39,738 bases of DNA, from IMG/VR virus record IMGVR_UViG_2529293069_000032; one strand, given 5' to 3'. This document shows, in pieces, positions 38,345 through 38,864 of this stretch; the first letter of the stretch is position 1; every line of letters starts with the position of its first letter. The DNA comes from a virus (taxonomy: Duplodnaviria; Heunggongvirae; Uroviricota; Caudoviricetes). The notes below the pieces were generated by a model. That model worked only from the letters and a program-made list of their open reading frames with translations, did not search any database and had not been told where the DNA came from. A program made the position numbers and the translations under genes.

Positions 38345-38535
38345 CAGGCAGAATTGCCGGAGTAACAAAAAAACGATAGATTACCCGCGGGTGCCTTTCG
38401 GCTGATGGTCGGAGGGAATACCCGAAGGCCGGATGTGGAAAGGCCCCGGAAAACATTTCTGTTTAACCGAGGCCCTAACATATCTACCTTAAGCAAGTGA
38501 TAGGTTAGCGCCTCTCCAACAAAGGAGCAAGCGCT

Positions 38536-38676
38536 ATGTCGCAAAAATCGCTTACGGCCATCACGTTCTGCGTGACGGTAATCCTCATCATCTGGATGCT
38601 ACACGGTTCGCTGTGTGAAATACGGATGAGCTTCTGGGGAGCGGAGTTTGCGGCGTTCTTACAGTGTAAGCAGTAA
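38536..38676 (+). CDS. Hok/Gef-family type I toxin peptide
   Basis: 46 aa (below track cutoff): MSQKSLTAITFCVTVILIIWMLHGSLCEIRMSFWGAEFAAFLQCKQ; TM helix then SLCEIR and E-x-AAF motifs; SD AAAGGAG upstream; terminator-like hairpins downstream. Confidence 0.7.
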   Translation: MSQKSLTAITFCVTVILIIWMLHGSLCEIRMSFWGAEFAAFLQCKQ

Positions 38677-38864
38677 GGAAACCGCGACGGGGGAGCAATC
38701 CCCCGTCAATCGGTTGCTAAGGTTGGCTGAAGTGGCACCCTATCTCACAGACATGAACAACAAACCCGCAGCGTAAGAACTGCGGGTTTTCTTTTTGGAA
38801 CTATCACTAGCTAGTGTACCGTTAACGGCACATAATGCTCGCACAACAAACCTGTTAAAAGAGA

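Follow-up and report, generated by a model that had tools for sequence, protein, structure and literature searches.

A probable hok/sok-type toxin–antitoxin module with a closed mok-like frame at the right end of a P88-like prophage of Escherichia coli O157:H7

The DNA analyzed here, IMG/VR virus record IMGVR_UViG_2529293069_000032 (Caudoviricetes; 39,738 nucleotides, referred to as the window in its full length), carries near its right end a candidate hok/sok locus, i.e. a gene for a Hok-type peptide embedded in RNA elements like those that control Hok synthesis in plasmid R1. The gene is preceded by ogr, which encodes a late transcription activator (38084–38344, plus strand; Pfam Ogr_Delta, 52.4 bits for a cutoff of 26.3, and RefSeq annotation) and is the final phage gene ahead of the hok module. 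The hok coding sequence starts 192 nt past the end of ogr and spans 38536–38676 on the plus strand; it specifies a peptide of 46 residues (MSQKSLTAITFCVTVILIIWMLHGSLCEIRMSFWGAEFAAFLQCKQ), which corresponds to RefSeq entry WP_000078920.1.

The 46-residue open reading frame (ORF) combines a hydrophobic N-terminal stretch (LTAITFCVTVILIIWML, as read from the sequence) with the motifs SLCEIR and AEFAAF, the signature by which a preliminary description had recognized a hok/gef-type toxin gene just outside ogr. Profile searches bear out this assignment: the peptide passes the Pfam HOK_GEF model (PF01848; 30.1 bits versus a gathering cutoff of 22, E = 3.7e-7, residues 7–44 of 46) and matches PHROG 251 over its full length (82.8 bits, E = 2.5e-23, in a library that has no curated cutoff). 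PHROG 251 is called 'MokW-like host killing', the name also given by phage annotation pipelines, and belongs to the class 'moron, auxiliary metabolic gene and host takeover', while RefSeq names the protein 'Hok/Gef family protein'. The best NCBIfam model is the HokA equivalog NF007290; the score lies so far under its cutoff (35.8 bits versus 89) that the peptide falls outside this equivalog and is to be placed in a distinct, HokA-like subfamily. It is 43% identical over its whole length to HokA of K-12, with which it has both cysteines in common. The database search yielded 68 homologues, mostly of 46 residues, from E. coli, Shigella, Salmonella and Klebsiella oxytoca, and all the named ones are Hok/Gef proteins; literature searches on the accession of the protein and on hok together with ogr gave no relevant paper. 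Eight residues are invariant in an alignment of 25 homologues (C27, E28, A36, E37, A39, A40, C44 and K45) and the median pairwise dN/dS (ratio of nonsynonymous to synonymous substitution rates) of hok is 0.25 for diverged loci, so that the peptide must correspond to a real coding sequence under constraint. According to a preprint on Hok diversity, the two conserved cysteines form a disulfide that is needed for Hok toxicity, and 42 of the 45 diverse Hok homologues assayed there were toxic. Note that a profile built from the protein alignment and run against genome contigs found seven related loci, three of them E. coli-type hok loci on contigs labelled Planococcaceae (a metagenome-assembled genome), Vagococcus sp. 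and Xanthomonas pisi (L003, L004 and L007; peptide identity of 100%, 100% and 74%, respectively); these contigs probably reflect assembly contamination and were kept out of any statement on host range.

The region upstream of hok is related to the leaders of known hok messengers. Rfam family RF01794 ('sok') matches positions 38389–38546 on the plus strand over the whole model (positions 1–157, E = 3.6e-8), with a score of 44.8 bits, which is under the gathering score of 59. As controls, the same model was run on an R1-type plasmid locus, where it matched the hok-sense strand up to the hok start codon (87.2 bits), on the K-12 hokA-sense leader beyond the IS150 insertion (70.1 bits) and on an Stx2a phage copy of the same 46-residue type (42.1 bits); the matches used were L102 182–353, L101 2516–2655 and L100 1221–1381. 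Since the controls fall on hok-sense leaders, the match in the window represents the leader of the hok mRNA and not the antisense strand, and the leader of the 46-residue subfamily is a divergent member of the family that is missed at the curated threshold (42–45 bits versus 59). A putative hok promoter read from the sequence (38354–38382, plus strand) consists of a −35 hexamer TTGCCG (38354–38359), a 17-bp spacer and a −10 hexamer TAGATT (38377–38382); it agrees with the consensus at 8 of 12 positions, its −10 hexamer is kept in the relatives and it ends 7 nt upstream of the start of the Rfam leader model. With this start, and with an intrinsic terminator formed by a stem (38762–38789) and a T-run ending near 38797, the predicted full-length hok mRNA comprises about 409 nt (38389–38797, plus strand). 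Homology with phage P88 stops at 38796, at this terminator.

The predicted transcript has a fold of −178.1 kcal/mol, well below that of shuffled sequences (z = −7.3), with two long-range helices linking its ends. First, a tac-like 5′ element (38389–38403) pairs with an fbi-like element (38725–38740) in both the minimum free energy and centroid structures. Second, the remainder of the 3′ inhibitory segment (38709–38740) to which the fbi-like element belongs, namely 38709–38723, pairs with 38486–38501, in the predicted target region of the antisense RNA described below. Immediately before this segment lies a GC-rich stem-loop (38685–38708), which folding, covariation and collinearity with R1 designate as the predicted 3′ end of a processed, active mRNA; its counterpart is the terminal stem of the R1 Tr-hok mRNA (PMC9841398). 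In the predicted fold of the RNA truncated at 38712, the 5′ end forms a local hairpin instead (38389–38423). The hok Shine-Dalgarno sequence (AAGGAG, 38522–38527), strong, conserved and located 8 nt from the ATG, is contained in a hairpin (38506–38536) that abuts the start codon. The leader forms additional hairpins, so the flanking hairpins mentioned in the preliminary description can be identified with these leader hairpins, the stem-loop at 38685–38708 and the terminator.

We checked this structure for covariation by laying it on an alignment of 21 diverged loci, with slid 3′ partners as controls. The cells are paired in 91.4% of cases versus 37–45% in the controls, a fraction that is inflated relative to them because the structure tested came from the window sequence itself, and 28 pairs are changed on both sides, versus 9–20. 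More specifically, compensatory changes affect (i) 4 of the 15 pairs of the tac/fbi clamp (91% of cells paired); (ii) 3 pairs of the second long-range helix; (iii) 4 pairs of the antisense-target hairpin; (iv) 5 of the 9 pairs of the 3′ stem-loop (98.9% paired); and (v) 5 pairs of the terminator. The hairpin hiding the Shine-Dalgarno sequence is paired to 92% over its 11 pairs, with no compensatory change. Duplex predictions agree with the alignment: the complementarity of the clamp is kept in diverged loci, and in Salmonella-type loci both sides have changed together.

The arrangement of these elements is that of the hok/sok (parB) system of R1 and R1-type IncF plasmids. On direct alignment, both loci display, in the same order, a promoter, a tac element beginning with GG(G/C)(U/G)GC, an antisense-target hairpin followed by GAGG, a pre-Shine-Dalgarno hairpin, hok, a 3′ stem-loop rich in GC, an fbi element whose sequence is complementary to that of the 5′ end and a terminator, together with antisense promoter hexamers at the same site and a Hok peptide with the motif SLCEIR...E.AAF. 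They differ in the carrier, a prophage in one case and a plasmid in the other, and in the peptide, which has 46 residues versus 52 for the R1 type, with 39% identity over 31 residues.

This collinearity and the conservation among relatives make it possible to place a Sok-like antisense gene, an RNA that the preliminary description had expected without delimiting it. The predicted RNA, of about 60 nt, would run on the minus strand from ~38496 to 38432, both ends being approximate: its start is predicted near 38494–38496 and its 3′ end, which is uncertain, was placed near 38432. It would consist of a 5′ single-stranded tail of about 20 nt (complement of ~38477–38496), a hairpin (complement of 38440–38475) and a U-poor tail, with a predicted fold of −25.4 kcal/mol (z = −3.9). 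The pairs of the target hairpin are all Watson–Crick in the relatives, so both strands can form the hairpin. The putative sok promoter (38502–38530, minus strand) comprises a −35 hexamer TTGCTC (complement of 38525–38530), a 17-bp spacer and a −10 hexamer TAACCT (complement of 38502–38507), overlapping the hok ribosome-binding site as the promoter does at the R1 sok position. Its hexamers agree with the consensus at only 6 of 12 positions but are kept in the relatives, some Salmonella-type loci having TATCCT at the −10 position; like that of hok, this promoter is assigned on position, homology and conservation. The alignment to known hok/sok loci that had been suggested at the outset thus locates a sok-like site and the tac/fbi fold-back elements; as for mok, it reveals a closed frame, which is discussed below.

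The otherwise conserved hok leader contains a hypervariable patch (38480–38492). Among 46 close relatives, pairwise diversity reaches 0.39 in 38480–38489, versus about 0.03 in the flanking 10-nt bins, with a smaller peak of 0.18 at 38450–38459, in the loop of the target hairpin. Its position is that of the predicted target of the Sok 5′ tail, and the breaks in the mok frame fall there too. As a conjecture, it would fit a rapid change of antisense specificity.

In R1, mok must be translated at least to the hok Shine-Dalgarno sequence, and premature stops suppress toxicity (PMC9841398). The R1 mok, of 70 codons, is opened by GAGG-N9-ATG, whereas the aligned codon in the window is ATA and is followed by a stop within 6 codons, which disqualifies a mok at the R1 position. 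What the window has is a vestigial mok-like frame (38433–38492, plus strand), which starts at ATG 38433 behind GAAGG (38424–38428), lies in the hok−1 frame and is broken by a single TAA at 38490–38492. An overlapping frame starting at GTG 38435 or ATG 38405 is closed by TGA 38498 and TAG 38501. Stops close each of the three frames between 38490 and 38508, with no ATG, GTG or TTG in the window between the stops of the mok frames and the hok start. We also considered the 31-codon ORF 38405–38500 as a mok and rejected it: it has no Shine-Dalgarno sequence, is located within the tac stem and ends 22 nt ahead of the hok Shine-Dalgarno sequence, and only frame-shifted equivalents of it read through in some relatives.

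Relatives, which probably indicate the earlier state of the window, are divided in this respect. An ORF of 61–87 codons in the hok−1 frame, reading through the hok start, is present in 16 of 49 unique variants (two variants with only a GTG at −28 and one with a short TTG ORF being left out of this count). The starts are equivalents of ATG 38405, GTG 38435 or, behind GAAGG, ATG 38433, and small indels decide which of them is in frame. In the E. coli clade, variants with an open mok frame and variants with a closed one encode the same Hok peptide; Salmonella-type loci lack any consistent mok-like ORF and still have a conserved Hok. Because a run of about 33 codons without a stop is expected with a probability of about 0.2 per frame, the open leader part could have arisen by chance, and open frames cannot by themselves decide whether mok is real in this subfamily.

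Altogether, given a Hok peptide that belongs to the family and is under purifying selection, an mRNA architecture that is conserved and covaries, and promoter-like hexamers that are conserved, this locus is very probably a hok/sok-type type I toxin–antitoxin module with a toxin of the 46-residue HokA-like subfamily, borne as cargo after ogr at the right end of an O157:H7 prophage integrated in leuZ. The preliminary description had called it a hok/gef-type type I toxin locus, and family matches, leader homology, collinearity with R1, the covarying 5′–3′ fold-back and the existing RefSeq and phage annotations all speak in its favor. By collinearity with R1, a mode of action can be proposed. The weak hok promoter would produce the mRNA of about 409 nt, which would be locked twice in its full-length form, by the pairing of 38389–38403 with 38725–38740 and by that of the antisense-target segment 38486–38501 with 38709–38723. 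Slow 3′ trimming to the stem-loop 38685–38708 would strip both clamps and let the 5′ end refold locally, which would open the trimmed mRNA to the Sok-like RNA made from the opposite strand. The antisense duplex would lead to mRNA decay, and the membrane toxin would be synthesized once the unstable antisense RNA is lost. It is by analogy that the two RNAs are proposed to be transcribed, the mRNA to be trimmed at its 3′ end, the antisense RNA to act and the peptide to be toxic.

Several observations weigh against this interpretation. A consensus promoter scan of both strands (threshold 9/12) finds no promoter for hok or sok, which also qualifies the expectation of an antisense transcript; the leader remains under the RF01794 gathering score; the paired fraction in the covariation check is inflated, as mentioned above; the hairpin hiding the hok Shine-Dalgarno sequence persists after truncation, being predicted for the full-length and the truncated RNA alike; finally, mok is closed in the window and in 32 others of the 49 unique variants. 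Since the mok frames all end short of the hok ribosome-binding site and the Shine-Dalgarno sequence stays in its hairpin, Hok output from this copy is probably low or depends on a mok-independent route. This leaves two options: toxin production from this copy is slight or nil, or mok is dispensable in the subfamily.

The first of these options would make the locus a silenced, decaying one, comparable to the chromosomal hok loci of K-12, that has kept the family signature and the RNA architecture but provides no toxin, no stabilization and no killing. Besides the R1 requirement for mok and the pairing of the Shine-Dalgarno sequence in both folds, it would accord with the state of the surroundings, a prophage that already appears defective because of an IS30 insertion in gene D and a neighboring second hok copy that has already decayed (both are described below). 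There are also precedents: hokA of K-12 is likewise an inactivated chromosomal copy, split by IS150 and with mokA and sokA annotated as pseudogenes, although its genomic site differs (cspA–glyS, versus a prophage end at leuZ here), and chromosomal hokA, hokB and hokC gave no post-segregational killing according to a summary in the preprint on Hok diversity (2026). However, purifying selection on Hok (dN/dS ~0.25) is observed even between loci devoid of mok, e.g. the Salmonella-type loci L008, L090, L091 and L093; the hok Shine-Dalgarno sequence is strong, well spaced and conserved; promoters, tac/fbi and the 3′ stem-loop are intact; and the identity of Hok in mok-open and mok-closed E. coli variants implies that any inactivation would be very recent. 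We therefore regard silencing as a possibility to be taken seriously, albeit not a probable one.

The second option can be cast as a mok-independent variant of hok/sok, in which Hok would be translated from its own strong ribosome-binding site once the local hairpin opens. The antisense RNA would then act some 30–100 nt upstream, through RNase III cleavage or refolding rather than by blocking mok, the patch at 38480–38492 would be a fast-evolving specificity determinant that limits cross-talk among the hok/sok copies of one genome, and the mok break would be a tolerated side effect. We consider this version tentative and rather unlikely.

The genomic setting of the module is well defined. Over the 1,739 bases compared (38000–39738), the window matches the chromosome of E. 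coli O157:H7 strain 493/89 with 100% identity, and many other E. coli show 99.5–99.9% identity over the same bases. For the rest of the window, the nearest phages are 520873 and P88 (Xuanwuvirus, Peduoviridae), with 95–96% identity over most of 25 kb. The window is a P88-like (P2-related, Peduoviridae) prophage of E. coli O157:H7. In RefSeq, the gene for the ogr/Delta-like zinc finger protein is followed by those for the Hok/Gef family protein, a hypothetical protein (opposite strand), tRNA-Leu, tRNA-Cys and tRNA-Gly, and by pgsA and uvrC; the integrase gene lies at the start of the window, with yecA to its left. The right attachment site, attR, consists of the 3′ half of the tRNA-Leu gene leuZ and its terminator (39619–39738, minus strand), as established from exact repeats and the tRNA annotation: an exact second copy occurs in the yecA–int intergenic region of the same chromosome, and L099 3125–3244 shares identical runs of 57 and 62 bases with 39619–39738. 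Since a copy of the 3′ half of leuZ stands at either end, the element is integrated in this gene, with all of the window as far as 39618 inside the element; integration of the phage restores leuZ. The inclusion of the terminator makes the repeat unusually long. ARAGORN finds no tRNA in the window because leuZ, on the minus strand, is cut off by the window end.

Inside the element, IS30 (34197–35348, minus strand, and flanks) is inserted in the late-control/tail gene D, of which RefSeq recognizes only a C-terminal VgrG/Pvc8-family fragment after IS30; because of this insertion, the prophage is probably defective. Between gene D and ogr, a cargo ORF of 379 codons (36655–37794, plus strand) has an N-terminal SEC-C metal-binding motif (Pfam, 34.4 bits) and no PHROG match; RefSeq calls its product 'YecA family protein', and the yecA gene of the host itself flanks the prophage on the opposite side. 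Elsewhere in the prophage, three Rfam families match above their gathering scores on the plus strand, isrK (5346–5420, 63 bits), C4 antisense RNA (5456–5543, 78.5 bits) and IS009 (27182–27380, 191.4 bits).

The module may stabilize the prophage or island, as the preliminary description put it, but the closed mok frame and the defective state of the prophage both weaken this idea. An active module could also serve the phage itself, either by promoting lysis or release upon induction or by protecting the lysogen from other phages through abortive infection. The precedent for the former is hokW-sokW of the Stx2 prophage Sp5 of O157:H7 Sakai, a toxin–antitoxin system of type I demonstrated experimentally, which increases the release of Sp5 about two-fold and which mitomycin C triggers through RecA (PMC8621323). 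Both loci are prophage-borne hok/sok systems from the same pathotype; however, Sp5 is lambdoid, whereas the prophage in the window is P2-like, and HokW, with 51 residues and an N-terminus reading MKQQKAM (primer YO-357, PMC8621323), belongs to a different Hok clade. Moreover, the sense probe for sokW, YO-592 (PMC8621323), contains GAGGCTCAATCCATG, which we read as an R1-like mok Shine-Dalgarno sequence and start, and this element is missing from the window locus. A role in the phage cycle or in defense would accord with several facts: the same 46-residue hok type is present in free temperate phages (P88, Chuche, 500465-2 and other Peduoviridae) and in Stx2a-converting phages; the site at the genome end, beside att and among cargo genes, is typical of morons, the class to which PHROG 251 belongs; the gpD–ogr–hok order recurs at prophage ends in Salmonella; and prophages show an enrichment of hok genes (bioRxiv 10.1101/2025.08.07.668861). 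For the present copy, however, the closed mok frame argues for low expression, and a lytic cycle is impossible if the IS30 insertion inactivates gene D, so that service to the phage seems doubtful.

A second copy of the module, reduced to a fossil, lies further downstream. Comparison of 38200–38830 with 39200–39680 by blastn reveals three collinear blocks on the plus strand: (i) the 3′ end of ogr (38312–38339 versus 39339–39366, 79% identity); (ii) the hok promoter and leader (38370–38476 versus 39379–39478, 72%, E = 6e-12); and (iii) the C-terminal coding part of hok (38605–38673 versus 39479–39543, 70%, E = 8e-7). This ogr′–hok′ copy therefore covers 39339–39543. The preliminary description had reported a remnant at 39457–39570 that shares the leader and CEIR-coding segments and lacks the part encoding the transmembrane helix; the degraded second copy is confirmed, as is its proximity to a tRNA gene (leuZ, annotated in RefSeq and partly beyond the window end), but the copy is larger than reported and begins about 120 nt upstream of the reported start. 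A clean 128-bp deletion, equivalent to 38477–38604, separates blocks (ii) and (iii) and has cost the copy its sok promoter, the ribosome-binding site and start of hok, and the transmembrane-coding part; in addition, the 3′ untranslated region is gone and the −35/−10 spacing is down to 11 nt. The fossil has no match in an Rfam scan and is unannotated in RefSeq; it is inert and lies inside the element, beside attR.

The fossil is present in 522 of 5426 complete E. coli genomes, and the same ogr–hok–ORF–remnant–leuZ arrangement was found in the three genomes inspected. In many IMG/VR proviruses it has the same architecture and lies at the same distance downstream of hok, with 86–99% identity; this shared architecture implies that the deletion is old and that the fossil is inherited with the element. 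The idea that the remnant comes from an older, separate prophage was examined by searching for a third att core near 38800, and none was found. The simplest reading is that 38800–39618 is the att-proximal arm of the phage lineage, which has retained the right end of a once duplicated or recombined ogr–hok region. An intact counterpart of the hok-plus-fossil arrangement exists on Salmonella contigs, where two intact 46-residue hok genes, each preceded by a leader of its own, form a tandem with a spacing of about 490 bp (L095, 1501–1641 and 1991–2131; L096, 1501–1641 and 1995–2135). Note that the interval between the hok terminator and the fossil holds, on the minus strand (38865–39146), a gene for a cysteine-rich protein of 93 residues with a signal-peptide-like N-terminus, which matches a phage family of unknown function (phrog_27544, 193.7 bits) and no NCBIfam model.

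This kind of locus is already known, and this very locus is already annotated at the protein level. The present analysis delimits its RNA elements, shows that its mok frame is closed, and establishes where the fossil lies and how far it actually extends. Given that prophage Hok toxins are well documented and that this protein occurs in hundreds of E. coli genomes, the importance of these additions beyond annotation quality is small. They do have a practical side: RF01794 describes the hok-sense leader, and its gathering threshold is too high to detect this subfamily, which leaves the RNA elements of such loci without annotation. As for the phages, the fossil marks an old duplication or recombination at their att-proximal end. 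As for the toxin family, the latest survey of Hok diversity, a preprint, explicitly leaves open whether mok is required family-wide. Most copies of the 46-residue subfamily are mok-closed, yet their peptide is under purifying selection, a combination that bears on whether the rule established for R1, in which mok is obligatory, extends to the family as a whole.

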